Under the pieces are notes generated by a model. The model was not told the origin of the DNA, did no database searches, and saw only the letters and a list, made by a program, of their open reading frames with translations. From positions 65,789 to 129,788 of the forward strand of contig CAKPDH010000003.1 of assembly GCA_934148845.1 (NCBI GenBank): 64,000 bases of DNA. Direction: 5' to 3'. The position numbers and the translations under genes were made by a program. Source of the DNA: an uncultured Bacilli bacterium (GTDB lineage Bacteria; Bacillota_I; Bacilli_A; RF39; UBA660). Positions 29,655 through 62,736 of the stretch are shown in pieces; position 1 is the stretch's first letter; each line of letters opens with the position of its first letter.

Positions 29655-32204
29655 ATGAAAAAAAGAATTATAGTGTTATTTCTAATTACTATGTTTATTT
29701 TTACTAATAAAGCTTTATGTGTTGAAATCATAAAAGAAGCGGGGTCTATAAAACTAGATGGTAGTTCACCTTGTGGAAAGAGTGCATGTGCTACTACATT
29801 AAATAGTTATGGAATAGGAGTAACCCTAATAAATAGTAATGGACAAATAGTAGGAAATAGAATTAACATATGGAATAATGAAACTACTAAAAGATATGCA
29901 AATATAAAAAAATATGGTCAAATTGGAAAAGATATAAATATAAATATAAATGAACTAGGAAAATATAAAGAAGCTCCTTGTACGGAAAATTATCTATATA
30001 ACAATATATCTGGAACAAATTATTTTAATTCAGATTTACTTACAAAATTAAGTGATAACTATAACTATTCAGAATATATAACAAATTTGAATGAAACAAA
30101 TGTAAAAACTATTTTAAAATATTTTGGAAAAAACATTGAAGATTCCTATAATTATTTTCTTAAAATAGAGCCTATATATTTTCTACATGAAAAATATTTT
30201 ACATATTGTAATTACTTTGTTGGTGATAATAATAATATGCTTAAGTATGCTAATGATTTAAAAGGTAAAGACAAAACTTTTTTATATTATTATTTGATAG
30301 GTGGGAACAATAAAACAATAGGTGGTGACTGGAATGTTTTTAGAAATAGACTGGTAAATCCAAGCTATTCTTGCCCAGGCTTAGGTGGCCTAAAAAATGT
30401 TGAATGCACAAATTTAACTTTAGCTAATTATACTGCAAGTAAAAAAAACGTAGAAGCTTTGTTTGACAACAGGGCAGGTTTAGGCGTAGGGTATGTTGCT
30501 ATTAAAGACTTTTTTAAATCTAAATTTAATATAGTAAAAAAAGATAATACGGGTGCTTTAGTGACAAATGCTACCTTTGATCTATATTTATATAATTATG
30601 AAGATAGATTATATAAAGAATTTAAAAAAAATTTAAAGACTACTTCTGGAAGATTTAGTGGTAATATTGATGTTACAGTAGGTAAGTATATGTTAGTTGA
30701 AAGAAGTGCAAAAGGATATGATTTAACTAAATCTAAATGTGAGGGATGTACTTCTTATGACTCTCCAAACTTTTATTTTGAAATAGATTCAACTACAACT
30801 ACAAAAACATTAACAATAACAAATGTAAAAACTTGTGTATCTGAATTTGATGATATAAGAAATGATAATAAAGGCATTGTATCTATGGAAAAAAGAATAA
30901 AACTTTATGATAAATATAAAGAAAGTGGTAAAAATTTTAATAAACTATTAGATATGAGTAATAAAACTGGAAGTAGTGCTTGTGGTAATGTAGACGATAA
31001 AAAAATAAAAGATACATATAAGTATAATTTATCTTGTTTCAATTTAAAACTAAATAACCAAATTCCATTTGATTCTAATAATTTAACTTATTATAGTGAA
31101 ATAGCTAACATAGAAGGAAAGGTGGCATATTGTCTAACTACACTTGATATAACAACATCAGGTGGAATATACGATAGTGTTACTTCAGGAAGACAAGTAA
31201 CATATGGATCAGCCCCACTTGCAACTGTTAGAAAAGTTTGCTATACATATAATATAAGTAATATGAACACAACAACAACGCAACCTGCAGATGATATTTC
31301 TAGCTATTTTCCACTAATATCTATGAAAAAATATATAAAAACATTTACTAATTCAAATTTAATAGAAAATTATGAATATATAAATAAGGTAAATGATAAG
31401 GTTAAATTTGTCCTTGAAAGTAGAAATGGAAATAGGTATGAATATGTAATGAAAGATCAATATGATTATAAAGATATAATATTGAATTATGGAACTGGAC
31501 AAGTTATAGATAAAGAGTGTGATAGTTACTGTCTAAATATTGGAAAAGGCATTATGAGTAGATTAACTGAAAAAGGATTGCAAACGATTAAATATCAAGT
31601 TAATTACAATTATTACATAAATGGAAAATTACAAAATAATATAGATAATAAGAATTGTAATTATACTGCTAATCCCGAAATAATAAATTCTAAACTTAAT
31701 TTACAGTTTGAACAAATAATGAATAAAAAACCATTTATGAATAAAGAAGGAACTAGTTTTAGAAATGTTAGTTATAATTGGTGGTCTAAAACTATAGATT
31801 ATAAAAATCTAAATGATTTAAATGGTGATGGAATAGTAGATGATTTAGATAAAATAATAAAAAAATATTCAAATAATAGGGAAGAATCTAAATCAGGTGA
31901 TCCTAAAGATAATTATTTAGTTGATTATGTCATGAATGGAAGAAATAATAGTTATAATTCAACTAAAGAGGGATATAGGTATAAAATAGTATTAACTCCA
32001 TCAGACATAAAAAAAATAAGAAAATATAATGATCGAGTAAACAATTATAATGACAATAATATATATTGTAATAATAATACTTGTTCAACTGAATTTATAG
32101 ATAACCTAAGAGAATCTAAAGTATGTTTTAAAAATATTTGCGATTCATTAAGCTTTAAACTAGATTATGCTAAACAAGTATATAATATAATAAATGAAAG
32201 TTAA
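29655..32204 (+). CDS. large secreted adhesin-like protein with Cna-B-type domain (paralogous to next gene)
   Basis: N-terminal signal peptide. One Cna-B-like module (GKYMLVERSAKGYDL). The C-terminal modules are shared with the 32312 protein: LNLQFEQ, DLNGDGIVDDLD Ca-loop, YLVDYVMNGRNNSY, LTPSDIKKIRKYND and CSTEFIDNL. No LPXTG motif. Confidence 0.6.
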   Translation: MKKRIIVLFLITMFIFTNKALCVEIIKEAGSIKLDGSSPCGKSACATTLNSYGIGVTLINSNGQIVGNRINIWNNETTKRYANIKKYGQIGKDINININELGKYKEAPCTENYLYNNISGTNYFNSDLLTKLSDNYNYSEYITNLNETNVKTILKYFGKNIEDSYNYFLKIEPIYFLHEKYFTYCNYFVGDNNNMLKYANDLKGKDKTFLYYYLIGGNNKTIGGDWNVFRNRLVNPSYSCPGLGGLKNVECTNLTLANYTASKKNVEALFDNRAGLGVGYVAIKDFFKSKFNIVKKDNTGALVTNATFDLYLYNYEDRLYKEFKKNLKTTSGRFSGNIDVTVGKYMLVERSAKGYDLTKSKCEGCTSYDSPNFYFEIDSTTTTKTLTITNVKTCVSEFDDIRNDNKGIVSMEKRIKLYDKYKESGKNFNKLLDMSNKTGSSACGNVDDKKIKDTYKYNLSCFNLKLNNQIPFDSNNLTYYSEIANIEGKVAYCLTTLDITTSGGIYDSVTSGRQVTYGSAPLATVRKVCYTYNISNMNTTTTQPADDISSYFPLISMKKYIKTFTNSNLIENYEYINKVNDKVKFVLESRNGNRYEYVMKDQYDYKDIILNYGTGQVIDKECDSYCLNIGKGIMSRLTEKGLQTIKYQVNYNYYINGKLQNNIDNKNCNYTANPEIINSKLNLQFEQIMNKKPFMNKEGTSFRNVSYNWWSKTIDYKNLNDLNGDGIVDDLDKIIKKYSNNREESKSGDPKDNYLVDYVMNGRNNSYNSTKEGYRYKIVLTPSDIKKIRKYNDRVNNYNDNNIYCNNNTCSTEFIDNLRESKVCFKNICDSLSFKLDYAKQVYNIINES

Positions 32205-32311: not shown

Positions 32312-35300
32312 ATGAAGAAAATTTTTATGATTATTGGCATATCAACAATTATAATATGTATGGTTATGATAAATGTTAGTAATGTAAATAGTGTCACAAC
32401 ATCAGACACATTTGAAGGAATAGGTTCATCGGGAGGTTCTCTTACTTCAAATCCTTGTGGCGAAAGTAGAACATGCATGAATCTTTTACCATATTTTGGA
32501 ATAAAGGTTACAATAGTTAAGAAAAATAATAATTCGCTTAAATCAATAACTAAACCTATTTATGTATGGAATAATGTTAATGAATCTAATGAATTAAATT
32601 ATGCTATAAAATTTATTGTTGAAAATAAATATGTATCTGACGATCCAGGAATTGCACAGTATCTTTATAAAGAATGTTACAACGCAAAAATAGTTGATAG
32701 TATCAAAGTAAGTAATTATATAAAAAAACACAGTATATCATCATCAGGACCTAATTATAATATTTTTAATTATAATGATACAAATTCAGATGATGAGAAA
32801 GCTCGAAATGTATCATCCTGGGATGAAATGAAATCCAAACTTTTAAATGGTAATTCGCATCTTCAAAGTCTTTTAAAAATTATAGCTGAAAATAAATTGT
32901 TTAATGATGGATATTCATTGGATTCTGTGGAAGGAATGTTAATTAAAATTGAACCAATAAATGTTTTTCAAGAAAAAAATGGTGAATCTTGTTTATTTTA
33001 TGTTGGTAGTATGGGAGATATTCATAGTGGCTACACTGGATCTGATTCAGTTCTTAACGATTTTTTTAGTCCAAAAGTAGGCTACTGGAGAGTTTATCAT
33101 AACAGAATAATTAGCTATTATGTTACGAATAGTGATTTTAATTCAATAGGTTATAATGGTATAACAGGATATGAGGGTGAAACAGGAATTGAAGACAATT
33201 ATTCAAAAGCAGTAGAAACATATAATAATAATGGTTATGCTAAAACAGGTCTAGGAGTTGCATATATAAAAATATCATCTCAGTACATACCAGGAAAACT
33301 TCAAATAAAGAAAATTGATGGTATTAATAATCCAATTGCTAATGTGCATTTTGATTTGTATAAAGGTCTTTGTACAGATGGTAAACTTATAAAACAAGAT
33401 ATAGTGACGTCAGGTGAAGGATTAGCTACTGTTGAAAATCTTGAGTCTGGTAAATATTGTATAAAAGAAACACAAGCTCCATATGGATATAAAAAGAGTG
33501 ATTTAGAAAAAATAGTGTATATAACTGCAGGCGAAACAAATAGCGTTGAGTTTAAAAATTTTAAATATCCAGCATTAAAAATCTATAAATATAAAGCTGG
33601 AACAAAGAAAGCTTTATCTGGTGCTGAATTTACGGTATATGCAGGTAATTGTGAAAATAAAGGTGCGAGAATAGACCGTGGTTCTACAAATGAAGATGGA
33701 TTTCTTCAATTTATGTTAAATAAGAGAGGAGCATACTGTGTTGAGGAAACACAAGCACCAAATAACTATATTAACAGCAATTCTTCAAAAAATGTTTATT
33801 TGAAATTTGGCGATGATATAACTTTAGAATTTGAAAATGAGTTAGACTGTAAAGGTGAATTTGAACAGGCAAAAGTTAATGGTGAGGTTTCAATGCAGGA
33901 TAGAATTAAAATATTTTGGGGAAAATATTCTATAGATGGTAAAGGTAGACGATATAATCAATTGTTAAATTTGACCAATAAAGATGCGACTTCTGCTTGT
34001 CAATATAAAAAACCAACGTACACACCCCAAATAACTTGCTTTAATTTTAAATATCCTTCAAATAGTGAATTTAATGCAAACAATCTTTCAAATTATAATG
34101 AACAATTTTTTAGTAATGATGGCTATATTAACTTTTGCTTAACTACTACGAATATATATACTGAAAAAAAATTACCTTCAGATAAAATAAAGGTAAAGGC
34201 CGGCATGATTGTTTTTGACGATAAACTTCAATTAAAGGTAGTTAAAACATGTTATAAATATCAATATGATAGTGCTTCTTCTGCTTCAAACTCAGGATTT
34301 AATTACACATTGAATGATGTATGGATTAACAAATATAGAACTTCATTTACTGAAAATATAATAAATAATGTTCGTATAAATAAATTAATTACTGATTATG
34401 AATATATTAATGAGGATAAAATAAATTATTTAAAAGATATACCTAACGGCTCAAAGTCTATAAGCGATAAAGATGAAAATAACAATTTAATTAAATCTGA
34501 AGATGATGGAAAAATAACTTATGAATATACGTATAAATATGAATATACTCCGATAAGTTTGTTGTATGGCTCTGGAAAGAATATTGCGAGTAAGGGTAAA
34601 TATTCAAACAATTTTAATGTACCGGGAATTATAAGTACATTTTCAGAGTCTGGATCTCAAATCATAAAATTTGGTGTGAAATATAAAGATTATACTGATA
34701 ATAAAGATATATACATAAATACAGAAGATGATGATGATAATTGCAAATATACTGTTGACCAAGCAATTATAACAGGATCTAATTTATTAAATCTACAGTT
34801 TGAACAAGTAAATTTAAAAAATCCATTTATAGAAAAAAATAATAATCCTACTACTGGTAATGTTACTATTAGAAAGGTAGGATCTAATTGGCGTTCAATT
34901 GATATTAATTCCTTTGATCTAAACGGTGATGGAGTTAGAAATGAAATAGATGAAGCAATAAAAAAATACGTTAATGATTTTATAAAGAATCCTTTAGCTA
35001 GTGAAAACGGAGATAACTATTTAGTTAAATATGTTATGAATGGTAGACCTAATAGTTATAGTAAGGATAAGCCTAAGTATGTAATAACGCTTACTCCATC
35101 TGATATTAAAGCTATTAGAAATTATAATGATTCTAATGATTATCAAGATTATGAAAAAGTTTATTGTACAGATTCTAATAATGTTTTGTGTTCAACGGAT
35201 TTCATTGATAATTTAAAAACTACTGATCCTAAGGTATGCGTAGGTGATACTTGTGAAAAGCTAAGCTCAGGTATTAATTTTAAAAGAGAAGTTACTGGTG

Positions 35301-36376
35301 GTAGTGATGTTAAAGATGCTTCATATATTAAGTTTTCTTTAAGTAATAGCGATTATGGTAAAATAGAAGGGGACATGAATATAGTTGTAAAAAAGGGAGA
35401 TAAGATAGAGTTTCCAGAGTTAAATATTAAGGAAGGTTATGGATTACTTGGTTGGATAACAAAAAATGAAAATAATAGATTTAACTACAATAATTATATA
35501 GATATATCAAATGTAACTGCTACTTTAGGTACTCAAGAGTATATGGCTGTACTTGCTAAAGAGCATAAAATATATAGAGAAACTGATGGTAATAATAGTT
35601 ATGTTTGTACGGTTTTGAGTAGAAAAAGTATGCAAGAAAGTGGTTGTCCAAGACTTGCTGACCCATCTAATGCATCTGGATTTGAAGGATGGAAATATAA
35701 TAATAGAGTTATAGATAATTATTATACGAGAAAATTTATTACTGATAATGATGATTTTATAATAACATTTACACCTAGTTATACACAAATTAAAATATAT
35801 GAAAGTATAGAGGTTGTAATGAATAATACAAAAATTAGATATTCTAAACGAGGTGTAGACATAGTAAGTAAGATTGATAAAATAATAGGAACATATTCTA
35901 TGAATGGTAAAATATTTAGTGAGCCAATAAATAAAAATCAATGTGAATATGATGGAGATGTTCACTCAACTAGATTAGGTAAAAATGCTTTTAGAGCAAG
36001 GTGCAAAAGAATATATTCTAAATATATAGACTATGAAATTGTAAAAGTTCCACTAGACTATATTGATACGAATAAAAATGCTTTAGGCGCTGGAATATTT
36101 ACTATATATACTAATTCAAATTATGAAAATGAAATTAGTGAGGCATATATAAAAGATAGTGAAAATAATACTCATAAATTTGAAAGGACTCATTTAGGCC
36201 TAAGAATAGACTTAAAAGAATTTGTGCCAGGAAAATATCCAGTTGGCGATTATTGGTTTGATTTAGTTTTTAAAGGAAAGAATGAAGACCTAATTACATG
36301 TAAGTTTAAAGTTACAAAGACTAAGCTAGGTTTAATTCCTAAAAGAGATGTAATTATATGTCCAGAATATCAATGA
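32312..36376 (+). CDS. giant secreted adhesin-like protein with two Cna-B-type domains
   Basis: Signal peptide. Tandem Cna-B motifs (SGKYCIKETQAPYGY, GAYCVEETQAPNNY). Same C-terminal shared modules (DLNGDGVRNEID, YLVKYVMNGRPNSY, LTPSDIKAIRNYND, CSTDFIDNL). 1354 aa. No LPXTG motif. Confidence 0.65.
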   Translation: MKKIFMIIGISTIIICMVMINVSNVNSVTTSDTFEGIGSSGGSLTSNPCGESRTCMNLLPYFGIKVTIVKKNNNSLKSITKPIYVWNNVNESNELNYAIKFIVENKYVSDDPGIAQYLYKECYNAKIVDSIKVSNYIKKHSISSSGPNYNIFNYNDTNSDDEKARNVSSWDEMKSKLLNGNSHLQSLLKIIAENKLFNDGYSLDSVEGMLIKIEPINVFQEKNGESCLFYVGSMGDIHSGYTGSDSVLNDFFSPKVGYWRVYHNRIISYYVTNSDFNSIGYNGITGYEGETGIEDNYSKAVETYNNNGYAKTGLGVAYIKISSQYIPGKLQIKKIDGINNPIANVHFDLYKGLCTDGKLIKQDIVTSGEGLATVENLESGKYCIKETQAPYGYKKSDLEKIVYITAGETNSVEFKNFKYPALKIYKYKAGTKKALSGAEFTVYAGNCENKGARIDRGSTNEDGFLQFMLNKRGAYCVEETQAPNNYINSNSSKNVYLKFGDDITLEFENELDCKGEFEQAKVNGEVSMQDRIKIFWGKYSIDGKGRRYNQLLNLTNKDATSACQYKKPTYTPQITCFNFKYPSNSEFNANNLSNYNEQFFSNDGYINFCLTTTNIYTEKKLPSDKIKVKAGMIVFDDKLQLKVVKTCYKYQYDSASSASNSGFNYTLNDVWINKYRTSFTENIINNVRINKLITDYEYINEDKINYLKDIPNGSKSISDKDENNNLIKSEDDGKITYEYTYKYEYTPISLLYGSGKNIASKGKYSNNFNVPGIISTFSESGSQIIKFGVKYKDYTDNKDIYINTEDDDDNCKYTVDQAIITGSNLLNLQFEQVNLKNPFIEKNNNPTTGNVTIRKVGSNWRSIDINSFDLNGDGVRNEIDEAIKKYVNDFIKNPLASENGDNYLVKYVMNGRPNSYSKDKPKYVITLTPSDIKAIRNYNDSNDYQDYEKVYCTDSNNVLCSTDFIDNLKTTDPKVCVGDTCEKLSSGINFKREVTGGSDVKDASYIKFSLSNSDYGKIEGDMNIVVKKGDKIEFPELNIKEGYGLLGWITKNENNRFNYNNYIDISNVTATLGTQEYMAVLAKEHKIYRETDGNNSYVCTVLSRKSMQESGCPRLADPSNASGFEGWKYNNRVIDNYYTRKFITDNDDFIITFTPSYTQIKIYESIEVVMNNTKIRYSKRGVDIVSKIDKIIGTYSMNGKIFSEPINKNQCEYDGDVHSTRLGKNAFRARCKRIYSKYIDYEIVKVPLDYIDTNKNALGAGIFTIYTNSNYENEISEAYIKDSENNTHKFERTHLGLRIDLKEFVPGKYPVGDYWFDLVFKGKNEDLITCKFKVTKTKLGLIPKRDVIICPEYQ

Positions 36377-36384: not shown

Positions 36385-36420
36385 TTAATTGGAGTACTAA
36401 TACATTAGTATTCCTTTTTT
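36385..36420 (+). terminator. weak intrinsic terminator
   Basis: GGAGTACTAA-taca-TTAGTATTCC imperfect stem followed by TTTTTTT. Confidence 0.4.
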
Positions 36421-36461: not shown

Positions 36462-38015
36462 ATGATACTAAGAAAACCGTATGCATTTTTTATTAAAATG
36501 TTTAAACCAATTCACTTAATATTGAGTGCTTTACTTATTTATAGTATATATCTTGAAAATAAGCTATTGGGAATTTTTAATAATTATATTAATACTGATA
36601 TACTTAGTATAGAAAATTCTTATATAGTAAATAATGGTATATATATAATACCTATTATAGTTATAGTAGCTTCTATTATAATGCTTACTATTATGCATCA
36701 AAAAAATAAACCATATAAATTTTATTTTATTACTATAATATCACTTATATTTGTTATTGTAGTTAATTCATATTCTGTTAATGTAATAAAATTAATGACT
36801 GAGAACATTCTTCCTGTTAGAACAGTTAAAATGGTACATGATTTAATGTTTATAAATATTGTTATAGATATTGTTCTTATAGTACTATTTATAATAAGAG
36901 GTCTTGGAATTAATATTAGAAAATTTGATTTTTCATCTGATTTGTCTAAGATGGATATAAGTGATAAAGATAAAGAAGAGTATGAAGTATCACTTAATAT
37001 TAATTATGATGAAACTAAAAAGAAAAGAAAGAGATTTTTTAGAAATTTTAAATATTTCTATTTTGAACACAAATTTATATGTAATATAACTATTTTATTT
37101 ATATTAATAATTGTCGTATCTATAACATTTATAACTATTAATAATAGAATATATAAAGTAAAGGAATCTACTGTACAGGAATTAAATGGTCTTACATTTA
37201 AAGTAAATAAATCTATGTTTGTAGATACTAATACTAAAGGTAAAAAATTTCTAAGTGATAGTGTATTAGTAGTTGTAGATATTAATTTAAAAAGTAACTA
37301 TAGCAGTAAAGTATTTTCAAAAGACTTTAATTTAAATATAGAAGGTAAAAAGTTCTATCCAACTGATAGTTATTCTAATGAATTATTTGATTTGGGTAAA
37401 ATATTTACTGATGAAAATATAAAAAATACATATACTAAATATCTATTAGCGTTTGAAATACCTCTAAAATATAAAGATAGTAAAATTAAATTTAATTATG
37501 TAAGCTTAGGTAAAAAGGTTATGGTTAATCTAAATCCTACTTTAATTAATAATAATTCTAAAAAATTTAATTATAATATTTCTGATAAACTAGAATTTAA
37601 GGATTCTCTTTCTTCTGTAAGATTAAAAATAAATAGCTATGAAATTATAGATAAATATAAAATAGATTATAAATATTGTTATCAAAATGATTGTATTGAT
37701 TCATCTGAGTATATAAAACCATCTTATGATAAAAATTATGATAAAACTATGCTTAAAATTAATTATGAATTTAGTAGTGATTCAAGTATTAATATAGATG
37801 ATTTAATAAATAAAACTAGTTATATAGAATATTACATAAATAATGAAATATTTTATGATTATGATTTAGAAATTATTTATAGTAATAAAAAGAAGTTTAC
37901 TGATACTATTTTTATAGGTGTTAATAATAAAGTTAAAGATGCAACTTATATTAGCTTAAATTTTGAAGTTAGAAATACAATTTATAAGTATATAATAAAG
38001 GAGGCTAAATCATGA
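36462..38015 (+). CDS. polytopic membrane protein with large extracytoplasmic C-terminal domain
   Basis: ~5 TM helices in the first 220 aa. An Asn/Tyr-rich C-terminal domain follows. Confidence 0.4.
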   Translation: MILRKPYAFFIKMFKPIHLILSALLIYSIYLENKLLGIFNNYINTDILSIENSYIVNNGIYIIPIIVIVASIIMLTIMHQKNKPYKFYFITIISLIFVIVVNSYSVNVIKLMTENILPVRTVKMVHDLMFINIVIDIVLIVLFIIRGLGINIRKFDFSSDLSKMDISDKDKEEYEVSLNINYDETKKKRKRFFRNFKYFYFEHKFICNITILFILIIVVSITFITINNRIYKVKESTVQELNGLTFKVNKSMFVDTNTKGKKFLSDSVLVVVDINLKSNYSSKVFSKDFNLNIEGKKFYPTDSYSNELFDLGKIFTDENIKNTYTKYLLAFEIPLKYKDSKIKFNYVSLGKKVMVNLNPTLINNNSKKFNYNISDKLEFKDSLSSVRLKINSYEIIDKYKIDYKYCYQNDCIDSSEYIKPSYDKNYDKTMLKINYEFSSDSSINIDDLINKTSYIEYYINNEIFYDYDLEIIYSNKKKFTDTIFIGVNNKVKDATYISLNFEVRNTIYKYIIKEAKS

Positions 38016-50725: not shown

Positions 50726-50773
50726 CATAAGTTATAAAAATATATATAATTTATTTAGAACGGAGGAAATAGT

Positions 50774-54101: not shown

Positions 54102-55876
54102 GAAGTCAAATTGCCCCAAAGGGGTTAGAATTTAAATCAAATGAATTTGTTATTAGTGATAAATATGCTTGTATATTAACTGTTATTTCATATCCAAAAT
54201 TTATATATCCTGGTTATTTGAGTAATTTAACTAGTATGGCAGGTATTAAAGTTGTTATTAAACATATACCACTTCCTTTTAGTACAATGAGTAAAATGTT
54301 AAATAAGGAACTTGCTGACTTAAAACAAAGATATCAAGAAGAAAAAGATAAAACTATTCAAGAACGTATTAGACAAGATTATGAATCTCTTGAAATGTTT
54401 ATATCTAACCTAGCATCTAGTCAATCTAAAATTTTTGATTTTCAAATGCATGTTATGATTACTGCTGACACAAAGGAAGAATTAGATTCAAAAAAAATAC
54501 AGGTAAAAAATTATTTAGAAGCTATGGAAATGCGTGCTATACCTTTGAGATTTGAACAAGATAAGGTATTGAAATCTATTTTACCAATATATGAAAAACA
54601 AGATATTGAAGATAGAATTGGTACACCAATTCCGTCTCCAACTATAGCTGCTATGTATCCATTTATTTTTGATAGTATTAAGGATCCAGGATTATCTACC
54701 TTACTTGGTATTGATTTTTCAGGGGGAGTTATATTATTTAATCAATTTTTATATCAAATTAAAAAAGAGCATAATAGAAATAATGCTAATATGATTATTT
54801 TAGGTACAAGTGGTAGTGGTAAATCAACTGCTGCAAAATTACTTTTAAGAAGTAATATTAGAAATAATTATCAAATTGTTGTTATTGATCCAGAAGGCGA
54901 ACTTGAAGAAATGGCTAATACATTTAATGGCGATTTCATAAGTCTTGGTAAAGGTGGAGATTATGGTATGATAAATCCACTTGAAGTTATAGTAGATGCT
55001 GATGAAGAGGAAAAAAGACAAGGTCTAGGTTATACTGTATTTACAAGAACACTTCAGACAATAAAGGCATTTTTAAAGTATTATGATCCATCTATTACTG
55101 AAGATGTTGTAAATATGTTTAGTGAAGTAGTACAAGAAACATATAAAAGATTTGGAATAGATTTTAATTCAGATTTTAGTAATTTTAAATCAAGTGATTA
55201 TCCAACTTTTAAAGATGTATATGCTACAATAAAAGGACGTATTTTATCAATTCCAGAAAAAACTCAGGAAAAAGATGTATTAGAGCAACTTGAAATAAAA
55301 ATTAGACCAATAGTTAGAGAATTAAAATATTATTTTGATGGACATACAACTATAAGTCCAAAAAGTAATTTTGTGGTATTTAATATTAAAGAACTTATGA
55401 ACGCAGATAAAAATATTAGAAACGCATTATTCTTTAATATATTAAAATATGCATGGGGGCTTACACTTAATCCTGCTATAAATACTATAATGATGGTAGA
55501 CGAAGCACACGTATTATTAAGTGGTGGTAATACACTTGGAGCAGATTTCTTAGCACAGATACAAAGACGTGCTCGTAAGTATAATACTGGTACTATAATA
55601 ATAACGCAACAACCAACTGACTTTAGTGATCCTTCTGTTATAACACAAGGAAAAGCAATATTTGATAATGCTTCTTATTATTTAGTTATGGGATTAAAAA
55701 AGCAAGCTGTAGATGATCTTTCTAAATTAATTGATTTAAATGATAATGAAAAAGAAAGTATTAAACAATATGATCAAGGTTCAGCACTTTTTGTATGTGG
55801 AAGCAGAAGAATGAGAATAAATATTATAGTTACTGATGAAGAATTAGATTCATTTGGTAGTGGTGGAGGACTATAA
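54092..55876 (+). CDS. virB4: VirB4-family conjugation/T4SS ATPase (TcpF/PrgJ/Orf16-like), main segment
   Basis: Walker A IILGTSGSGKST. Walker B IMMVDEAHVLL. Conserved ...ARKYNTGTIIITQQPTDF motif of VirB4/TraE. Confidence 0.85.
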   Translation: MDVRSQIAPKGLEFKSNEFVISDKYACILTVISYPKFIYPGYLSNLTSMAGIKVVIKHIPLPFSTMSKMLNKELADLKQRYQEEKDKTIQERIRQDYESLEMFISNLASSQSKIFDFQMHVMITADTKEELDSKKIQVKNYLEAMEMRAIPLRFEQDKVLKSILPIYEKQDIEDRIGTPIPSPTIAAMYPFIFDSIKDPGLSTLLGIDFSGGVILFNQFLYQIKKEHNRNNANMIILGTSGSGKSTAAKLLLRSNIRNNYQIVVIDPEGELEEMANTFNGDFISLGKGGDYGMINPLEVIVDADEEEKRQGLGYTVFTRTLQTIKAFLKYYDPSITEDVVNMFSEVVQETYKRFGIDFNSDFSNFKSSDYPTFKDVYATIKGRILSIPEKTQEKDVLEQLEIKIRPIVRELKYYFDGHTTISPKSNFVVFNIKELMNADKNIRNALFFNILKYAWGLTLNPAINTIMMVDEAHVLLSGGNTLGADFLAQIQRRARKYNTGTIIITQQPTDFSDPSVITQGKAIFDNASYYLVMGLKKQAVDDLSKLIDLNDNEKESIKQYDQGSALFVCGSRRMRINIIVTDEELDSFGSGGGL

Positions 55877-55893: not shown

Positions 55894-57723
55894 ATGAATT
55901 CACAAGGTGAAGTTAGTAATGATAAAAAAAATCTAGAAAAAGTTAAAAATGCTAATATGGCACGTACTGCTGCGGAGTATGCACAAATGTCTGGTCATCC
56001 AGTAGCATCTTCTATTGGGAAAGGAATTAAAATAGCAGATAAAATAACTCATGGAAAATCTTCTGAAAAAATAGGAAAGAAGTTATCTAAAAATCCAGCT
56101 CTTAATGGAGGAAATTTTGGTATACCTAAAGCATTACAAAACAGATTAAATACTTCTATGAATTCTAATATTAATTCAAATGGATCAAAAAAATCAAATG
56201 CTAATATATCTGAGAAACTTAAAAGGAAAAATAATTTTCCTACTAAGATTGGTAGAGCTATTAACATGCTTAATAAGTCAAAAGCTGGTTTAGAAAAAGT
56301 TTTTGGTGATAAAAGTAGTAAGATTGAAGAAGAGAATGAATTAAGTGGAGTTAATTTAAAGATAAATAAAAAAACATTAATGATAGCTGGTATTACTTTA
56401 GCTTCATTAATGTTCTTTATAATGTTTGGAATTCTTTGTTCTTTGCTTAATGCAGGATATACGGAGCTTATTCAAATAGCAAAAACTTTAACACTTGATG
56501 AGGTAATTGAAAAGATAAATAAGAATAAACAAACTTCTTATAATTATGAAGAGGATATATTTATATTAAATAATTATAATGATGATTCCTTACATCAAGT
56601 AAAAAAAATTACTGATTATACTCTTGAAGAAGCTTTTCCTGAAATAAAGTATTATTCAGAAAAGTATACTGATAATAAAAAAAATATATACAATTATTTT
56701 TATAAGCTTTATTATATAAAAGAATATTATAAAAATAATTATAATGTTAATTTGAATGTTGCTTTAATTCATCTTACTTTAATAGAAAAAAATGAAGATA
56801 AAAGAGAAATCTTTTTACAAAATACTAAGGGATTTGATTTATCACTAAAGGAAAATAATCCTTTGTTTGATTACAATTATGACTGGTATAGTATAGGTTA
56901 TAAGACAAGTATTGATGAAAGCTCACACGATATTGAGTTATTAGCACAACATCAAATATCAGAAAGTTACCGTGAAACTTGTACAGATTCTAATATGAAT
57001 GTTGTAAATAGTAATGAAGATTCAAGTAAAACTATTACTTGTAATGAAGGTGAGACGTATAATAAAGTATCAATAGGTTATAAAATTGATTTAAATAAAT
57101 ATAAAGAATTTTTAAAACAATATTTTGAAGAAAAATATTATATAAATAAAGCAGGTAATTCTGGTAATATTAATAATCCTAATGATTCTAGCAATTTGGA
57201 TACTCCATCAATAAATACAGATTGGCAGAACTGGAGACAATGTAATGAATCTTGGAGTGACTCTGTTATTGGAAATACTTCTTATACTATGTGTACATCA
57301 GGATGTTTAATTACTTCTGTTTCAATACAAATAGCGCGTAGTGGGACACAAACAACAGTAACTCCATTTACGCCAGCAGAAGGTCTTAAGTATTTTTCTA
57401 TTAATAAAAAAACTGCAGAATTTAGATGGAATGTTACTGCAGTAGCACCTTACTTTATTAAGGCTTTTGATATGCCTCTTACTGGTATGACAAAAAAACA
57501 AATTGCTGACAAACTTTCTAAATACTCTAATTATTACATAATTATATATTCTAAGAACTACAGAAATAGAGACCATTTTATGGCCGTTAATTATGTTGAT
57601 ACTAATACAAGTGATATATATGTATTTGATCCAGCTAAACTTGTAAAAAATAATGAATCTGTTTATGGCGGATCTGGTGGGTATTATCCACTTAAAGCAT
57701 ACTTTTTTGAGAAGAAGGATTAA
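55894..57723 (+). CDS. membrane-anchored protein with C-terminal C39-like (papain-fold) cysteine peptidase domain
   Basis: Central TM (LMIAGITLASLMFFIMFGIL). C-terminal ...YTMCTSGCLITSVSIQIARSG ... RDHFMAVNYVD...IYVFDPA fits the Cys...His...(D)P pattern of Peptidase_C39_2 (YvpB/BtrH-like). Confidence 0.4.
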   Translation: MNSQGEVSNDKKNLEKVKNANMARTAAEYAQMSGHPVASSIGKGIKIADKITHGKSSEKIGKKLSKNPALNGGNFGIPKALQNRLNTSMNSNINSNGSKKSNANISEKLKRKNNFPTKIGRAINMLNKSKAGLEKVFGDKSSKIEEENELSGVNLKINKKTLMIAGITLASLMFFIMFGILCSLLNAGYTELIQIAKTLTLDEVIEKINKNKQTSYNYEEDIFILNNYNDDSLHQVKKITDYTLEEAFPEIKYYSEKYTDNKKNIYNYFYKLYYIKEYYKNNYNVNLNVALIHLTLIEKNEDKREIFLQNTKGFDLSLKENNPLFDYNYDWYSIGYKTSIDESSHDIELLAQHQISESYRETCTDSNMNVVNSNEDSSKTITCNEGETYNKVSIGYKIDLNKYKEFLKQYFEEKYYINKAGNSGNINNPNDSSNLDTPSINTDWQNWRQCNESWSDSVIGNTSYTMCTSGCLITSVSIQIARSGTQTTVTPFTPAEGLKYFSINKKTAEFRWNVTAVAPYFIKAFDMPLTGMTKKQIADKLSKYSNYYIIIYSKNYRNRDHFMAVNYVDTNTSDIYVFDPAKLVKNNESVYGGSGGYYPLKAYFFEKKD

Positions 57724-57725
57724 TT

Positions 57726-58379
57726 ATGAAGGTGAAAATATTTATTTTATTTAGTCTATTATTTTTGACTGGGTGTACTGCTACATACAATGTTGAAATA
57801 AAGGATAATACTATAAAAGAGCATTTAAATTTAGTTGAAACTAATAAAGCTATTTTTGATATTCCGAATGAATCTGGTTGGACATTAAGAGGCTTATTTG
57901 ATTCATATCTTAGCAAAGATGTATATTCTAAGGCTGATTACACTATAAAATCTTTAAATAATAATGATAGACTTGGTATAGATTATAAAAATAATAATTT
58001 GTCTGAAATTAAAAATTTGTCTTTATTAAATCAATGTTATAATGATTATTATGTAAGCGATACAAGTGATATTGTACAAATAAGTACAGGTGAAAATTTT
58101 ACTTGTAATGATTATTACAATAATCTTGAATCTTTTAAGGTCGTTATAAAAACAAATCATAAAGTCTTATCTAGTAATGCAACACGTGTTGAGGGTAATA
58201 AGTATATATGGGAAATAGGTAGTAGTGATAGTAAAAACATTGAATTTTCATATTCTAAAGATGAAATTATAAAATCCTTTCCATATTTAATTGTTACATT
58301 ATGTGTATTAGGTATTTGTATTTTAATTTGTATTTATTTCTTAATAAGAAGAAAAATAATATCAAATAATAAAATATAG
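57726..58379 (+). CDS. lipoprotein with C-terminal TM helix (possible VirB7-like/accessory T4SS component)
   Basis: Lipobox LLFLTG|C. The C-terminus has a hydrophobic helix followed by RRK. Confidence 0.45.
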   Translation: MKVKIFILFSLLFLTGCTATYNVEIKDNTIKEHLNLVETNKAIFDIPNESGWTLRGLFDSYLSKDVYSKADYTIKSLNNNDRLGIDYKNNNLSEIKNLSLLNQCYNDYYVSDTSDIVQISTGENFTCNDYYNNLESFKVVIKTNHKVLSSNATRVEGNKYIWEIGSSDSKNIEFSYSKDEIIKSFPYLIVTLCVLGICILICIYFLIRRKIISNNKI

Positions 58380-58391: not shown

Positions 58392-59633
58392 ATGCAAAAA
58401 AGAATATTAAGAATTATTACATTGTTTTCAATATTACTTAGTCCATTAAATATTGTTAGTGCGTATGAATATGTTGATTCAAGTCGCTCTAATGTGATAA
58501 GTTCAATGATAAATGATATATTTAATAAAAAAAGACAATATGATCAAATCTTTGGCGATATGATTGATGAAGAAACGACTGTATATTCAAAAACTAATAC
58601 ATTATATTGGTGGCCTATAGGTAGTATGGAGACTACAAAAAGTGGAAATATTACTTACGCAATGGGTAATCCTGAATATGTAAATATTTCTTCTGGATTT
58701 CAAGGACGTAATGATCCAGCAACAGGTAAGTGGGTAAATCATACAGGACTTGATATTCCATCTGGAGGAAGGGTAAATGAAGTAAATGTAATTGCTGCAA
58801 ATAGTGGTATTGTAGTATATCCAAATAAAAATTCTAAAATAGATTGTCCAACAGGACGTCAAAGTTATTCTCCTTGTAATGGTTATGGAAATTACGTAGT
58901 TATTCAACACAGTGATGGAAACTATACTTTGTATGGTCACTTATATCAAAATTCTATTTTAGTACGTTCTGGTGATAAAGTTGAGCAAGGACAAGTAATC
59001 GCTAAAGTAGGAAGTAGTGGTTACTCTACTGGAGCGCATGTACATTTTGAAGTAAGAATTGGTCAAAATGCCCAGAATGCTACTGTAGATCCACTTGAAT
59101 ATGTAAATGCTTCAAATCCAAGACCTGTATCAACTTCAGATGATAATGAATTGATAAAGATGCTAAAACATCTTGAAGGTGCAAAAACTAGTGGCGATAG
59201 TTATGTAGTTTATCAACCTAAAAATGATGATCCAACGGTCGGTGTTGGTGTAAATTTAAAATATACTGCTGATATGTTTAAAAAATATAATTATGATGTA
59301 TCTAATGTTAAAGCAGGTGATACACTTCCAAAGGATGTTGTTGATAATGTAATGATGGATATAATAGAAGATAAAAAAAGCTCTATTAGATCTATTATAT
59401 CTGAAAATAATATAACTCTTAAGGAATATCAAATTGATGCATTAGCTTTAATGTATTATCAAGCAGGTAACATTAATGGCTTTGTTACAAACTACAAAAA
59501 ATATGGATGTACTGAAGAATTTTATAAAAAATGGTTTTATAATAAAGGATTAAATAAAGAATATATAGAAGGTATCCATAATAGACGAAATAAAGAGTGG
59601 TTATTATTTTCTACTGGTAAGTATACATATTAA
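58392..59633 (+). CDS. bifunctional peptidoglycan hydrolase: M23 (LytM) peptidase + GH24/phage-lysozyme-like domain
   Basis: M23 motifs HTGLDIP...GNYVVIQHSDGNYTLYGHL...GSSGYSTGAHVHFEV. C-terminal LKHLEGAKTSGDSYVVYQ...DPTVGVGVNL resembles the LEG...Y.D..G..T.G.G core of T4-type lysozymes. Signal peptide. RBS GGTGAGGTG. Confidence 0.7.
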   Translation: MQKRILRIITLFSILLSPLNIVSAYEYVDSSRSNVISSMINDIFNKKRQYDQIFGDMIDEETTVYSKTNTLYWWPIGSMETTKSGNITYAMGNPEYVNISSGFQGRNDPATGKWVNHTGLDIPSGGRVNEVNVIAANSGIVVYPNKNSKIDCPTGRQSYSPCNGYGNYVVIQHSDGNYTLYGHLYQNSILVRSGDKVEQGQVIAKVGSSGYSTGAHVHFEVRIGQNAQNATVDPLEYVNASNPRPVSTSDDNELIKMLKHLEGAKTSGDSYVVYQPKNDDPTVGVGVNLKYTADMFKKYNYDVSNVKAGDTLPKDVVDNVMMDIIEDKKSSIRSIISENNITLKEYQIDALALMYYQAGNINGFVTNYKKYGCTEEFYKKWFYNKGLNKEYIEGIHNRRNKEWLLFSTGKYTY

Positions 59634-59644: not shown

Positions 59645-60142
59645 ATGAAGAATAAAAAGAGTTTATTAATAATATTACTTTTTGTTGTTGCAATTATTGT
59701 ATTAATAGTAACAATATTTGCAAATAAAGAAGACAAAAGAAAAAATGACATAAGTATAGTTTATGATTATGGTGCATTTTATACTGTAAATTCTTGTCTA
59801 TACAGATTTACAACTTATATTTCATCTAATGATAGTAAAAGTGTTTTGCTTACTTTAAGTAATAATTATAAGAAAGAAAATAAAATAACTGAGGCTAATG
59901 TTTTAGAACATTTTAGTGATGTTCCTAGTGATTCTACTTTTGTATCTAAAAAAATGTATTATGAAAAGATTGATGACAATATTACAAAATATTATGTATA
60001 TGGTTATTTTGAAGAAGATGTTTTAGATGATTATTATGAATCTAATAAAGATTTAAAAAATGTATATTACATTGTATATTTAGATTCTTCAAAAAAAATA
60101 TTTTCTGTAGAACCATATGATGGTAAAGTATTTGGAGGATAA
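59645..60142 (+). CDS. small N-terminal-TM protein (VirB8-like/TcpC-like NTF2-fold candidate)
   Basis: N-terminal TM, then a ~130-aa domain rich in beta-strand-type Y/V/I alternation. RBS GAGGTG. Confidence 0.3.
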   Translation: MKNKKSLLIILLFVVAIIVLIVTIFANKEDKRKNDISIVYDYGAFYTVNSCLYRFTTYISSNDSKSVLLTLSNNYKKENKITEANVLEHFSDVPSDSTFVSKKMYYEKIDDNITKYYVYGYFEEDVLDDYYESNKDLKNVYYIVYLDSSKKIFSVEPYDGKVFGG

Positions 60143-60608
60143 TATGAATGATAGTTCTAAAAAAACATTAGTTGTATTAGTAATTGGAATTATAATAGTA
60201 GGAACATTATATTTGTGTTTAAATAAGATATTTAATAAAAAAAATGAAGATGTATTTTTAAAAAACTATGAAGTAAATGAGTATATTCCTATGTATATAT
60301 CTGATCAATCTAAAGCAGAAATTTACTTAAGTGATTATACTAAAATAATGCATTCGGATATTAATGCAGCATATAATTTACTTGATCCTTCTTATAGAGA
60401 AAAAAAATTTAGTAATATTGCTTCATTTGAAAACTATGTATATAATTTAAGAGCTTCAGTATATAAAGTAGATAAATATTATATAAAAACAGAAGGTAAA
60501 TATGAAATAATTGGTGTTTATGATAATAATGGTAATCTATTTATCTTTAAAACAAATGGTGTAATGCAATATAATGTATTATTTGATGAAAATACAGTAG
60601 AAATTTAG
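60117..60608 (+). CDS. small N-terminal-TM protein (second VirB8-like candidate)
   Basis: Same architecture as the previous ORF; overlaps it by 26 nt. Confidence 0.3.
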   Translation: MMVKYLEDNMNDSSKKTLVVLVIGIIIVGTLYLCLNKIFNKKNEDVFLKNYEVNEYIPMYISDQSKAEIYLSDYTKIMHSDINAAYNLLDPSYREKKFSNIASFENYVYNLRASVYKVDKYYIKTEGKYEIIGVYDNNGNLFIFKTNGVMQYNVLFDENTVEI

Positions 60609-60618
60609 GTGATAAAAT

Positions 60619-62736
60619 ATGAAAATGAGATATAGAGCAGATGCAAAAGATGTAATTATATTTGGCATTTTTGCGCTTGTTTGGCTTTTAATCGTTTCTT
60701 TTGCTGTATCTAACATATATGAATTTTTAAATGGTAGATCTTTTACCATTAATATATTTATAGCGTTTTCACTTCAAAATATAGCTATAACTTTAATTTT
60801 CTTTGTAATAGGAATTGTAGCTGTTTTTGCAGGTGTAAAATCTGTCTTTCTTGAAAAAGAAGACGATGTAACTGGTATTGGTATATCAATAGGAAGTAAA
60901 AAAGAAAAAAATTATGCAAGATGGGCAAAAGATAGTGAAATAGAAAATGGATTAGATGTAAAAGCTGTAGATCCACTATCTCCAAAAGCAGATGCAGCTG
61001 GTATTCCTCTTAAAATGACTCCTAAAAAAGTTTGGGTTGATAATGGTGGGTATCATAATCTTGTAATAGGTAGTACTGGTGCAGGTAAAACACAAACAAC
61101 GGTTTTACCTATGGTAAACCTACTTGCAAAACATGATGAGTCAATGATTGTAACAGACCCTAAAGGCGAAATATATGAGGGAACCTCAAACTATTTAAAA
61201 AGTTTAGGTTATAATATTGTACTTTTAAATTTCCGTGATCCACAGCAAGGTAATGCTTGGAATCCTATGTATTTACCATATTCTTTATATAAAGATGGTA
61301 ATATAGATAAATCAGTTGAGTTACTTGAAGACTTAGCTGCTAATATACTTCACGATCCATCAGCTAAAGGACAGGATCCATTCTGGGAAAATACATCAGC
61401 TGATTATTTTGCTGGTCTAGCTTGTGCCCTTTTTGAAGATGCAAAGCCAGAAGAAATAAATTTAAATAGTATAAGTTTAATGACAACAACTGGAGAAGAA
61501 AAGTTAGCTAATACTACTTATGTAAAAGATTATTTTAGTTATAAAGATCCAGCAGGTACAGCATATACTAAAGCATCCTCTACACTTATGGCTCCTAGTG
61601 AAACAAAGGGTAGTATATTATCTGTATTTAAGCAAAAAATCCAATTATTTGCGTCTCGTGCTAATCTATCAGAAATGCTTTCAAATAATGATTTTGATAT
61701 GCGTGATATTGGTAAAAAGAAAACAGCTGTTTTTATAGTTATTCAAGATGAAAAAACAACATATCATTCACTTGTAACTATATTTTTGAAACAGTGCTAT
61801 GAAACATTAATTTCAGTGGCTCAAGAATCTGGTGGAAAACTTCCACATAGAACTAATTTTATACTTGATGAGTTTGCAAATATGCCACCTTTAAAAGATG
61901 TTACAACTATGGTTACAGCTGCACGTTCTAGAAATATACGTTTTACATTTATTATTCAGAACTTTGCTCAGTTATACGAAGTATATGGTAAAGAAAATGG
62001 TGAAACAATTAAAGGTAACTGTGGTAACATTGTATATTTGATAAGTACAGAGTTATCCGCACTTGAAGAAATTAGTAAAATGTGTGGTGATGTTAAGTCA
62101 AAAGAAAAAGAAAAAACTAGTTCGACTCCTCTTGTAACTGTAAGTGATTTGCAGCGTTTAAGTCAATGGGAGACAATTATATTAAGACTTAGAACTATGC
62201 CTTTTAAAACAAAATTAACACCAAACTATCAAATGAATTGGGGACATAATTTTCCTAAAGCAAAATATCCACAAAGAGAAAAAATTCCTGTAAAAACGTT
62301 TGATATAAAGGCTTTTGTAAATAAAAAAAGAGAAGAAAAAATAAATAGTATGTTAAAAGATGGAAATCAAGGCATGCCAAGTAGTCCATTTGGTGGATCG
62401 TCTTTTAATCCATTTAGCGGCATTAATAGCGGTTTTGATAGACCAGATATAGGAAGTTCATCACCTTTTCAGGGTGGCTATAATATAGATGATATGGTTA
62501 AGAGAATAGATGCAAAAATAGCTGAACTTGAAGCAGAAGAAAAAGAAGAAGAATTAAAGAAAAAAGAAGAAAAAGAAACTGTTATTTCTCCTACTGAAAC
62601 TAAGGAAGAAGTAAATAATATAATAACGGATGATAAACTAAATAATAGTAGTGATAATAATTTATCTATTAAAGACAATGATACAAAAGATATAACAGAT
62701 GATCAATTTTTTGATGATTTCTTTTCAGATGAGTAA
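60619..62736 (+). CDS. virD4: type IV coupling protein (VirD4/TraG/TcpA-like)
   Basis: Two N-terminal TM helices. Walker A GSTGAGKTQT. Walker B FILDEFANMP. TraG/TRAG-type motifs are present. Acidic, Ser-rich C-terminal tail. Confidence 0.85.
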   Translation: MKMRYRADAKDVIIFGIFALVWLLIVSFAVSNIYEFLNGRSFTINIFIAFSLQNIAITLIFFVIGIVAVFAGVKSVFLEKEDDVTGIGISIGSKKEKNYARWAKDSEIENGLDVKAVDPLSPKADAAGIPLKMTPKKVWVDNGGYHNLVIGSTGAGKTQTTVLPMVNLLAKHDESMIVTDPKGEIYEGTSNYLKSLGYNIVLLNFRDPQQGNAWNPMYLPYSLYKDGNIDKSVELLEDLAANILHDPSAKGQDPFWENTSADYFAGLACALFEDAKPEEINLNSISLMTTTGEEKLANTTYVKDYFSYKDPAGTAYTKASSTLMAPSETKGSILSVFKQKIQLFASRANLSEMLSNNDFDMRDIGKKKTAVFIVIQDEKTTYHSLVTIFLKQCYETLISVAQESGGKLPHRTNFILDEFANMPPLKDVTTMVTAARSRNIRFTFIIQNFAQLYEVYGKENGETIKGNCGNIVYLISTELSALEEISKMCGDVKSKEKEKTSSTPLVTVSDLQRLSQWETIILRLRTMPFKTKLTPNYQMNWGHNFPKAKYPQREKIPVKTFDIKAFVNKKREEKINSMLKDGNQGMPSSPFGGSSFNPFSGINSGFDRPDIGSSSPFQGGYNIDDMVKRIDAKIAELEAEEKEEELKKKEEKETVISPTETKEEVNNIITDDKLNNSSDNNLSIKDNDTKDITDDQFFDDFFSDE

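Follow-up and report, generated by a model that had tools for sequence, protein, structure and literature searches.

The window analysed here, a stretch of 64,000 nt with a G+C content of ~25% from an uncultured Bacilli bacterium, contains a 33-kb array (29655-62736) in which the genes of a Tad-like pilus module are followed by those of a VirB4/VirD4 type IV secretion system (T4SS). The array comprises about 30 genes; every substantial open reading frame (ORF), including all those described below, lies on the plus strand, and the gaps between genes are short or overlapping. The flanks are scpA/scpB on the left and genes for a rhodanese, RmuC, RNase R and SmpB on the right. The first-pass annotation of this sequence had described the co-directional array, its two modules and its flanks (scpAB and rhodanese/rmuC), and these descriptions stand. 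It also proposed that two normally separate machineries have been fused here into an apparatus of no described family, a proposal that did not survive comparison with conjugative plasmids.

The pilus module begins with a DUF5411 protein (38721-39122; PF17424 at 1.3e-46), a candidate minor pilin with a pilin-like N-terminus, in which [KR]-E-S-x-W-G followed by a hydrophobic helix is kept across species. The following gene (39140-40015) encodes a CpaB/RcpC-like, SAF-domain protein, matched below cutoff by TIGR03177 (1.4e-6; 27.8 bits, cutoff 71) and PF16976 (16 bits, cutoff 28.8). Next comes a secretion ATPase of the CpaF/VirB11 family (40044-41228; PF00437, T2SSE, at 2.8e-27), for which CpaF (66.8 bits), FlaI (63.1 bits) and VirB11 (63.0 bits) were tied in the comparison with the PDB, and the VirB11 (115 bits), TrbB (97 bits) and TadA-type (94 bits) models of NCBIfam all scored far under their cutoffs. 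Two membrane platform proteins follow: a TadB-like protein with a single GspF/PilC-fold cytoplasmic domain (41241-42143) and a TadC-like protein (42140-42940) that is its remote paralog. The alignment of the second protein with the first by hhalign gave a probability of 90% (E 1.7e-6, 142 columns) with a deeper alignment, an earlier comparison based on a shallow alignment having returned no match, and the TadC designation is made at the level of the fold only. The pair of single-domain GspF-family platform proteins characteristic of TadB/TadC is present, as is a receiver-like plus ParA/MinD-like protein of the TadZ/CpaE type, a soluble protein of 332 aa with a degenerate Walker A motif (47663-48661). 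Sequence profiles of both platform proteins and of the TadZ-like protein found no match in the PDB.

A leader of the form M-[KR]-E-[AS]-x-G, followed by a hydrophobic helix of ~22 residues, was found in four small proteins of the module in dozens of species. They are the DUF5411 protein, an 83-aa candidate major pilin (43025-43276) and two candidate minor pilins or pseudopilins (46688-47188 and 47206-47646). The 83-aa protein has the leader MKEAAGEA, a hydrophobic helix and a Cys-rich tail in the alignment; the leader is invariant there, and the protein ranges from 55 to 96 aa. Its gene is present in 69 of 80 related loci. The first of the two minor proteins, for which the start of the gene caller was used, belongs to a DUF4320-like group and carries a conserved M-K-E-S-x-G-Y followed by a hydrophobic helix (70 of 80 loci), and the second, a homolog of a plasmid DUF4320 protein, begins with M-R-E-A-x-G. 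The leader looks like a class-III-type signal distinct from the G/XXXXEY signature of Flp pilins and, since it is common to the four proteins, a composition of one major and three minor pilins would fit. As both the G/XXXXEY motif and an A24 peptidase are missing from the array, we refer to this module as Tad-like rather than Tad. Of the Tad set first annotated, the weakly matched CpaB, the T2SSE ATPase, the platform pair and the TadZ-like protein were recovered.

The T4SS module opens with VirB2-like T4SS pilins, three of which had been annotated and were borne out by PF18895, which matches 29 of 57 orthologs (best E 1.4e-6). The three paralogs (48742-49161, gene-caller start, PF18895 at 3.9e-5; 49178-49597, 2.8e-3; 50774-51160, 1.2e-3) share 40-55% identity. 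Perfect 12/12 sigma-70 consensus promoters (TTGACA, 17 nt, TATAAT) lie directly upstream of the first and third of these genes (48664-48692 and 50722-50750). About 2 kb past the right end of the window, locus L001 (14259-15293) encodes, between DUF2238 and RNase R, a 344-aa protein with 24-47% identity to the VirB2-like genes, in a position kept in many species; this match therefore indicates a fourth VirB2-like domain outside the array. Between the second and third paralogs lies the gene for a 369-aa protein with an N-terminal transmembrane (TM) anchor (49616-50725), found in a subset of species (30 of 80 loci).

Profile searches confirmed the VirB4, VirD4 and cell-wall hydrolase calls of the first-pass annotation and gave weak matches for its VirB6-like and PrgI/VirB3-like proteins. 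The VirB6/TrbL-like polytopic channel protein (51234-53231; ~6 TM segments) has a weak TrbL_4 match and matches the MMCAP2_0566 conjugal transfer family at 1.3e-3, and the PrgI/VirB3-like protein (53252-53578) matches PF12666 weakly at 8.3e-5. VirB4 is encoded by two ORFs, a TrsD-like N-terminal domain (53556-54101; NF045975 at 1.3e-12) and the ATPase domain (54092-55876; PDB 4AG5 at 5.1e-52, NF045975 at 1e-103, CD1110 family at 2e-53), the latter with a median identity of 81% across species. NF045975, a model of the VirB3-VirB4 fusion of integrative and conjugative elements (ICEs) of Mollicutes, was aligned by three consecutive ORFs over its positions 2-94, 108-276 and 296-891. The split was kept in all 17 loci tested, each from a different species, and is ancestral, not a frameshift.

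Downstream are the genes for a 609-aa bitopic protein (55894-57723; one TM segment at 167-185), a lipoprotein-like 217-aa protein with a C-terminal TM segment (57726-58379; LFLTGC lipobox identified by eye), a cell-wall hydrolase with M23 peptidase and lysozyme-like domains in the VirB1 role (58392-59633; PF01551 at 1.1e-23 and PF00959 at 1.5e-4), and bitopic proteins of 165 aa (59645-60142) and 154 aa (60144-60608, gene-caller coordinates), each with an N-terminal TM segment. The 609-aa protein is a candidate hydrolase by virtue of a Cys/His-containing C-terminal domain recognised by eye; it had no match in Pfam, NCBIfam, PHROGs or the PDB and is poorly conserved (29% identity, 18 of 80 loci). 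The two products of 59645-60608, annotated at first as VirB8-like, are candidates for such an NTF2-fold bitopic protein by their size and topology and have no significant family match. The module ends with a VirD4-type coupling protein of the CD1115 family with an acidic disordered tail (60619-62736; PF02534 at 7e-58), which scored 297 bits with NF045973 (cutoff 250). The TcpA coupling protein marks the Tn916/ICEBs1/pCW3 subgroup of the mating-pair formation (MPF) class MPF_FA. The window system has a VirB4 of the monoderm group by its profile scores, a VirD4-type coupling protein, PrgI/VirB3-like and PrgH/VirB6-like proteins, with the membrane components supported weakly, and a VirB1-like hydrolase. 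Because PrgI is accompanied by a VirD4-type and not a TcpA-type coupling protein, the T4SS is MPF_FATA-like in the scheme of Guglielmini et al. (PMC4027160); a T4SS is present as first annotated, but not of the MPF_FA class.

An exhaustive search with platform protein 1 returned 195 relatives in 1.84 billion cluster representatives, including proteins from Erysipelotrichaceae metagenome-assembled genomes (MAGs) and a protein from the Bacillus cereus group. With the latter as the tblastn query, relatives were found on 366 plasmids, 358 of them from Bacillus; relatives of the window ATPase are encoded on 614 plasmids and those of the window VirB4 on 1106. Most of the plasmids with relatives of the platform protein, the ATPase and VirB4 come from Bacillus, Listeria, Staphylococcus and Clostridium, and a conjugative type has been assigned to many of them. 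In pBMB67, one block of genes encodes a MobP3 relaxase, VirD4 (CD1115), a 126-aa VirB2-like protein, TrbL, PrgI, a 227-aa ORF and VirB4, and a second block on the same strand encodes a 134-aa DUF5411-like protein, a SAF-domain protein, an AAA_31 protein, a T2SS/T4P/T4SS ATPase, membrane proteins of 305 and 244 aa, an 89-aa protein and DUF4320. In phmmer comparisons, nine genes of the window matched pBMB67 counterparts (1e-4 to 2e-80): the CpaB-like protein and the SAF-domain protein (2.9e-20), the ATPase (1e-37), platform protein 1 (8e-12), platform protein 2 and the 244-aa protein (2.1e-10), the minor pilin encoded at 47206-47646 and DUF4320 (1.9e-5), PrgI (1e-4), the VirB4 N-terminal ORF and the 227-aa ORF (2.6e-16), VirB4 (2e-80) and VirD4 (9e-64). 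The DUF5411-like gene occupies an equivalent position in pBMB67 and in an Erysipelotrichaceae MAG. The hhalign comparison of the TadZ-like profile with the plasmid AAA_31 protein was not significant. The Listeria plasmid pLM5578 has an equivalent composite layout, plus a thioester-domain adhesin, and pLS20 presumably belongs with these plasmids, a pLS20_p028-family annotation being present in pLM5578.

Parts of this architecture have been reported previously. The tra region of pAW63, pXO2 and pBT9727 was described in 2005 as encoding VirB11, VirB4 and VirD4 homologs, with a split VirB4 and two conserved hypothetical proteins adjoining VirB11 (PMC1196294), and a review of conjugation in the B. 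cereus group refers to the ATPase as VirB11 and leaves a pilus unmentioned (PMC9673590). Gilmour et al. (2010) reported that the Listeria island LGI1 joins virB4, virD4, virB11, virB5 and virB6 with "cpa, tad" pilus genes (PMC2834635), and that paper likens the island to the pXO1-encoded secretion system of Grynberg et al. 2007. A Tad-like kit combined with a monoderm T4SS is thus how a large family of Gram-positive conjugation systems is normally built. The proposal of an undescribed chimera does not hold, because both modules are already known together from conjugative plasmids and islands such as pBMB67, pAW63/pXO2, pLM5578 and LGI1. The first-pass annotation had itself named a catalogued conjugation locus as the finding that would overturn its claim of novelty, and such loci exist in substance, although not as an identical locus. 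What appears to be new is the relaxase-less, site-fixed and lineage-wide chromosomal state of the system in a gut lineage with reduced genomes, of which we found no description in the literature searched; a search for literature on RF39 and type IV secretion yielded nothing relevant.

The distribution of the array was investigated in a GTDB scan with one genome per species, which gave 599 pattern matches, at least 559 of them with a gene related to that of the ATPase. The 80 species loci considered here are the best 80 of these at least 559 relatives (ATPase identity 72-91%), and the names among them include "uncultured Bacilli", "uncultured Tenericutes", "Mollicutes bacterium" and "Candidatus Fimihabitans", the last placed under Mycoplasmatota in NCBI. 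Exact copies of proteins of this organism were present in human gut metagenome contigs, Hadza samples included. A tblastn search with 30 window proteins against ~80 loci revealed a near-uniform gene order, the synteny check suggested in the first-pass annotation: two genes of unassigned family, DUF5411, CpaB, ATPase, the two platform proteins, pilin, two minor pilins and TadZ-like, followed on the right by one to three VirB2 genes, VirB6, VirB3, the VirB4 N-terminal ORF and VirB4. In 80 metagenome loci recovered by a scan with VirD4 (56-87% identical), VirB6 to VirB4 are followed by ~4 kb of fast-evolving genes, VirD4 and then rhodanese-RmuC-DUF2238-RNase R-SmpB, and the group rhodanese-RmuC-RNase R-SmpB lies on the right in most of them. 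The left neighbour is scpAB in at least 30 species loci. A circular MAG of this group (L053) measures 1.2 Mb, and the locus takes up ~2.7% of such a genome.

The ORFs show neither disruption nor change of length across dozens of species. The ratio of nonsynonymous to synonymous substitution rates (dN/dS) was 0.05-0.09 for the ATPase (40044), 0.05-0.11 for the VirB4 ATPase ORF (54092) and 0.08-0.17 for VirD4 (60619), 0.07-0.33 for the flanking RmuC, RNase R, SmpB and ScpA/B, and 0.23-0.70 for the surface-exposed parts of the array. The motor proteins are conserved like, or better than, the adjacent housekeeping genes. Such conservation effectively refutes the reading, very improbable here, of a decaying and functionless remnant of an integrated plasmid or ICE, to which the missing relaxase, the VirB4 in pieces and the degenerate Walker A of the TadZ-like protein might point: the VirB4 split is ancestral and common to functional conjugative plasmids, the ORFs keep their length in dozens of species, dN/dS falls to 0.05, and the locus occupies ~2.7% of a genome of ~1.2 Mb.

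As first annotated, no relaxase, Rep or integrase domain was detected in any ORF of the array by Pfam and NCBIfam profile searches, and no direct repeat of 13 nt or more flanks it. Homologs of the plasmid MobP3 relaxase, topoisomerase and primase were absent from the window, from 1.68 Mb of genome loci and from the 80 metagenome loci; no relaxase was found in ~160 related loci, and no recombinase lies within or abuts the array or stands at the locus edges in those loci. Instead of the patchy distribution and variable insertion sites of conjugative elements, the flanks and gene order are constant across species. The array thus bears the signature of a vertically inherited chromosomal trait rather than of a mobile element, and the hypothesis of an ICE was rejected on the grounds of flanking repeats, edge recombinases and synteny.

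The outer genes of the array are more variable. Two secreted giant proteins of 849 aa (29655-32204) and 1354 aa (32312-36376), annotated at first as two giant Cna-B adhesins, are paralogs (33% identical over 665 aa) and have a Cys-containing N-terminal motif in common. Both have signal peptides, and the second, a putative adhesin, has SpaA/prealbumin-like domains (PF17802 at 1.6e-27; SpaH/EbpB-like at 1.4e-11), but neither has an LPXTG/NPxTG sorting signal or TM anchor. The adjacent sortase B is therefore unlikely to anchor them. The 849-aa protein has a counterpart in five of the 80 species loci. A sortase-B substrate (43460-44989), with a C-terminus composed of NPNTG, a TM segment and a basic tail (LPXTG_anchor at 0.007), precedes a class B sortase with a long N-terminal extension (45028-46602; TIGR03064 at 2.4e-45, 154.7 bits, cutoff 153.75). 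This pair, correctly recognised in the first-pass annotation, is a species-specific insertion found in none of the 80 other species loci. The giant proteins and the sortase pair are species-specific accessories, absent or not conserved in other species.

The conserved core begins with a 517-aa polytopic membrane protein (36462-38015), with ~5 predicted TM segments and an extracellular domain, whose fast-evolving gene (dN/dS 0.45-0.63) stands at this point of the array in 64 of 80 loci. We considered this protein as the missing prepilin peptidase and rejected it: it is without conserved catalytic Asp motifs, and the window copy itself departs from the candidate GxD motif. The next gene (38012-38662; 62 of 80 loci) encodes a conserved protein of 216 aa in which a signal peptide is combined with a C-terminal TM anchor. 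The 849-aa, 517-aa, 216-aa, 369-aa, 609-aa, 217-aa, 165-aa and 163-aa proteins had no match in Pfam, NCBIfam or PHROGs. Terminator-like hairpins lie after the second giant gene (36391-36414) and just after the pilin gene (43314-43338).

The recombinase nearest to the array is a truncated serine recombinase (26820-27393, with a 126-aa resolvase N-terminal domain at 27013-27393 and a 66-aa ORF), which adjoins tRNA-Leu(CAA) (28115-28201) 2.3 kb to the left of the array, beyond scpAB. Related loci do not keep it, and it is probably what remains of an unrelated element. Among the many hypothetical ORFs in the left third of the window are a large serine recombinase of full length and an AIPR (abortive-infection-type) gene (4234-5844 and 17109-19082), which suggests that other mobile or defence islands lie nearby. 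Another strain (L087, 1-426) encodes an identical AIPR protein and has, beside iPGM and near a weak DUF4368 match, a second VirD4-type gene whose product is 39% identical to the array VirD4; it is absent from the window and probably belongs to a separate mobile element. A 294-aa ORF (24112-24996) was considered as a VirD4 fragment and rejected, the extra VirD4 of L087 being the 39%-identical paralog that the window lacks.

We consider it reasonably probable that the array, fixed in the chromosome and without a relaxase, descends from the conjugation machinery of Bacillales plasmids, has been vertically inherited throughout a lineage of uncultured gut Bacilli with small genomes and has been co-opted by the cell. 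Co-option for the cell's own use is suggested by homology and conservation: the single ancestral site and motors that evolve as slowly as housekeeping genes argue that the locus serves the organism rather than a mobile element, as has been proposed for the T4SS of Patescibacteria. In such an apparatus, a short fibre with the 83-aa pilin and the three minor pilin-like proteins as its subunits would be extruded across the wall by the ATPase and the platform pair so as to reach another cell, with the CpaB-like and TadZ-like proteins as possible scaffold and positioning factors. The variable secreted or sortase-anchored adhesins may set the specificity of contact. The M23/lysozyme hydrolase would open the peptidoglycan, VirB4, VirB3, VirB6 and a VirB2-like conduit would form the channel, and VirD4 would select a cytoplasmic substrate, whose export is argued for by the retention and good conservation of VirD4. 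The substrate could be DNA, by way of an unlinked or unrecognised relaxase as presumed for Mollicutes ICEs, or it could be proteins.

Several observations weigh against a single pilus-assisted and relaxase-less machine. The N-terminus of the candidate pilin, MKEAAG-EANxTV, has no Glu at +5 or Tyr at +6, and without the G/XXXXEY signature of Flp the assembly of a filament is only presumed from the sequence. A TadV/CpaA prepilin peptidase was not found, since no ORF of the array matches Peptidase_A24 in Pfam or NCBIfam. The scores of the ATPase would place it with neither CpaF nor VirB11 specifically. The dN/dS values are approximate because dS is saturated (~1), and a relaxase could sit elsewhere in the genome, of which ~64 kb is covered here. 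Finally, at least three species have other genes after the pilus half, where the T4SS half would be expected. In L054 (15199-15930), a rhodanese gene comes directly after the pilus half and one VirB2-like gene, and in L042 (15421-19423) and L045 (13202-17166), hpf and secA come after the pilus half; all three retain it with one or two VirB2-like genes. The halves are therefore separable and need not form one machine.

A more specific version of the co-option reading is put forward tentatively. The locus may be a lineage-defining, contact-dependent organelle of an order of uncultured, auxotrophic gut Bacilli with small genomes (probably RF39-like), in which a conjugation machine with its Tad-like pilus has been converted into a means of attaching to other microbes or to host cells and of exchanging DNA, proteins or nutrients with them or extracting these from them. 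If so, it would be a functional equivalent of the T4SS that Saccharibacteria need for epibiotic growth, and abundant gut bacteria would be obligate partners or parasites of other cells.

The separability of the halves also raises the possibility, which we regard as unlikely, of two independent neighbours, a Tad-like adhesion or colonisation pilus and a separate T4SS, adjacent only because both came with a common plasmid-derived block. Besides the three species in which the pilus half persists without the T4SS half following, this reading is consistent with the module of an Erysipelotrichaceae MAG, in whose visible 16.6 kb neither a VirB4 nor a VirD4 could be recognised, with a Clostridial operon of CpaF, PilC and DUF5411 described without a T4SS (PMC9523054), and with the terminator-like and strong promoter-like sites between sub-blocks. 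However, of the 24 genome loci in which ~4 kb or more of sequence lies beyond the last VirB2-like gene, 22 have a T4SS gene after the pilus half, and the VirB2-like genes, nominally parts of the T4SS, stay with the pilus half when the T4SS half is missing. That unrelated conjugative plasmids of Bacillus and Listeria show the pairing as well is an argument for a functional link between the modules.

Less likely again is a working conjugation system, ICE-like or chromosome-mobilising, with its relaxase and oriT elsewhere or of an unrecognised family, and with DNA moving within the lineage. Mollicutes ICEs are presumed to transfer without a canonical relaxase, and among the NCBIfam models VirB4 matched the Mollicutes ICE VirB4 family best. 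In favour of this reading, VirD4 has been kept and shows good conservation, the plasmid homologs examined are all conjugative, the window contains serine recombinases and remnants of mobile elements, and L087 has a second, divergent VirD4. A self-transmissible element would nevertheless be expected to show patchy distribution and variable insertion sites, whereas the array keeps a fixed chromosomal position and diverges in step with the flanking housekeeping genes, and relaxase, integrase or att-like repeats were not found at the locus in the ~160 related loci.

Should the array indeed be a co-opted descendant of plasmid conjugation machinery, it would provide, after Patescibacteria, a second reduced-genome lineage with a fixed, relaxase-less conjugation machine, under housekeeping-grade selection and occupying ~2.7% of a 1.2-Mb genome, which would point to a common path by which conjugation gave rise to reliance on other cells. 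The surface pilin, adhesins and motor ATPases would offer a testable handle on the lifestyle of a widespread uncultured gut group. The "VirB11" region of plasmids of the pAW63/pXO2 and pLM5578 types would then be a complete Tad-like pilus kit; only a VirB11 homolog is named for the pAW63/pXO2-type region in PMC1196294 and PMC9673590, and "cpa, tad" genes were noted in 2010 for LGI1 (PMC2834635). Such a kit would add to the recent finding of VirB2-like pili in Gram-positive T4SSs. A 2025 preprint reported that the VirB2-like protein PrgF, predicted to form a pilus, is essential for conjugation of pCF10 from Enterococcus faecalis and that most Gram-positive conjugative plasmids carry VirB2-like proteins, and the VirB2-like genes of the window are therefore unsurprising.

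Of the known systems, the conjugative plasmids of Bacillus and Listeria share most with the window locus: the DUF5411-like protein, SAF/CpaB, the CpaF/VirB11 ATPase, two homologous platform proteins, a small pilin-like protein and DUF4320 in the pilus module, and the VirB2-like protein, TrbL/VirB6, PrgI/VirB3, a split VirB4, a CD1115-type VirD4, a wall hydrolase and large surface adhesins in the remainder. The plasmids have in addition a MobP3 relaxase, a topoisomerase or primase, replication and partition genes, and mobility, none of which applies to the window locus, which is chromosomal, at a conserved site and vertically inherited. Protein identities are ~25-31%, and the order of the modules differs, with the pilus before the T4SS in the window and the T4SS before the pilus in pBMB67.

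The locus has in common with Tad/Flp pili a pair of single-domain platform proteins of the GspF fold, an ATPase from the CpaF/VirB11/FlaI group, a TadZ-like protein with receiver and ParA domains, a small pilin, pilin-like minor proteins and, by weak matches, a CpaB-like protein. Unlike these pili, it has neither the G/XXXXEY Flp motif nor a TadV/CpaA peptidase in the locus, its platform and TadZ-like proteins are unrecognisable by sequence profiles, and its ATPase falls under every curated Tad cutoff. The operon that Miller et al. (2022) predicted in gut Clostridia, for which no T4SS was described (PMC9523054), resembles the pilus module, by its description, in having DUF5411, a CpaF-type ATPase and a PilC/GspF-type membrane protein among 8-9 genes in gut Firmicutes. 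In the Erysipelotrichaceae MAG (L091, 3560-14693), a module of DUF5411, RcpC, T2SSE and two platform proteins is followed by an 886-aa protein with a weak match to the pXO2-28 C-terminal domain and by a 1414-aa P-loop protein. In the IncI1 plasmid R64, a thin type IV pilus that assists mating-pair formation is encoded beside the conjugative T4SS, as mentioned in PMC12102498; that system is Gram-negative, with a type IVb pilus and an MPF_I T4SS, and the likeness is one of analogy only.

The closest parallel in evolutionary terms is the T4SS of Patescibacteria, which is chromosomal, derived from MPF_FATA, lineage-wide and usually without a relaxase (Quinonero-Coronel et al. 2025, PMC12102498). 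Its exaptation was inferred because the relaxase is absent; it is read as co-opted and, as shown in Southlakia, is essential for epibiotic growth (PMC12102498). Both systems are chromosomal, MPF_FATA-related, lineage-wide in organisms with reduced genomes and devoid of a relaxase, and both have several PF18895 VirB2 paralogs, a separate TrsD ORF that resembles the VirB4 N-terminus, and peptidase and lysozyme genes beside virB4. In Patescibacteria, unlike the window locus, the type IV coupling protein is usually encoded away from virB4, no linked Tad-like module has been described, and type IV pili are encoded separately. The window locus and the T4SS of Patescibacteria resemble each other in architecture and evolutionary mode only.

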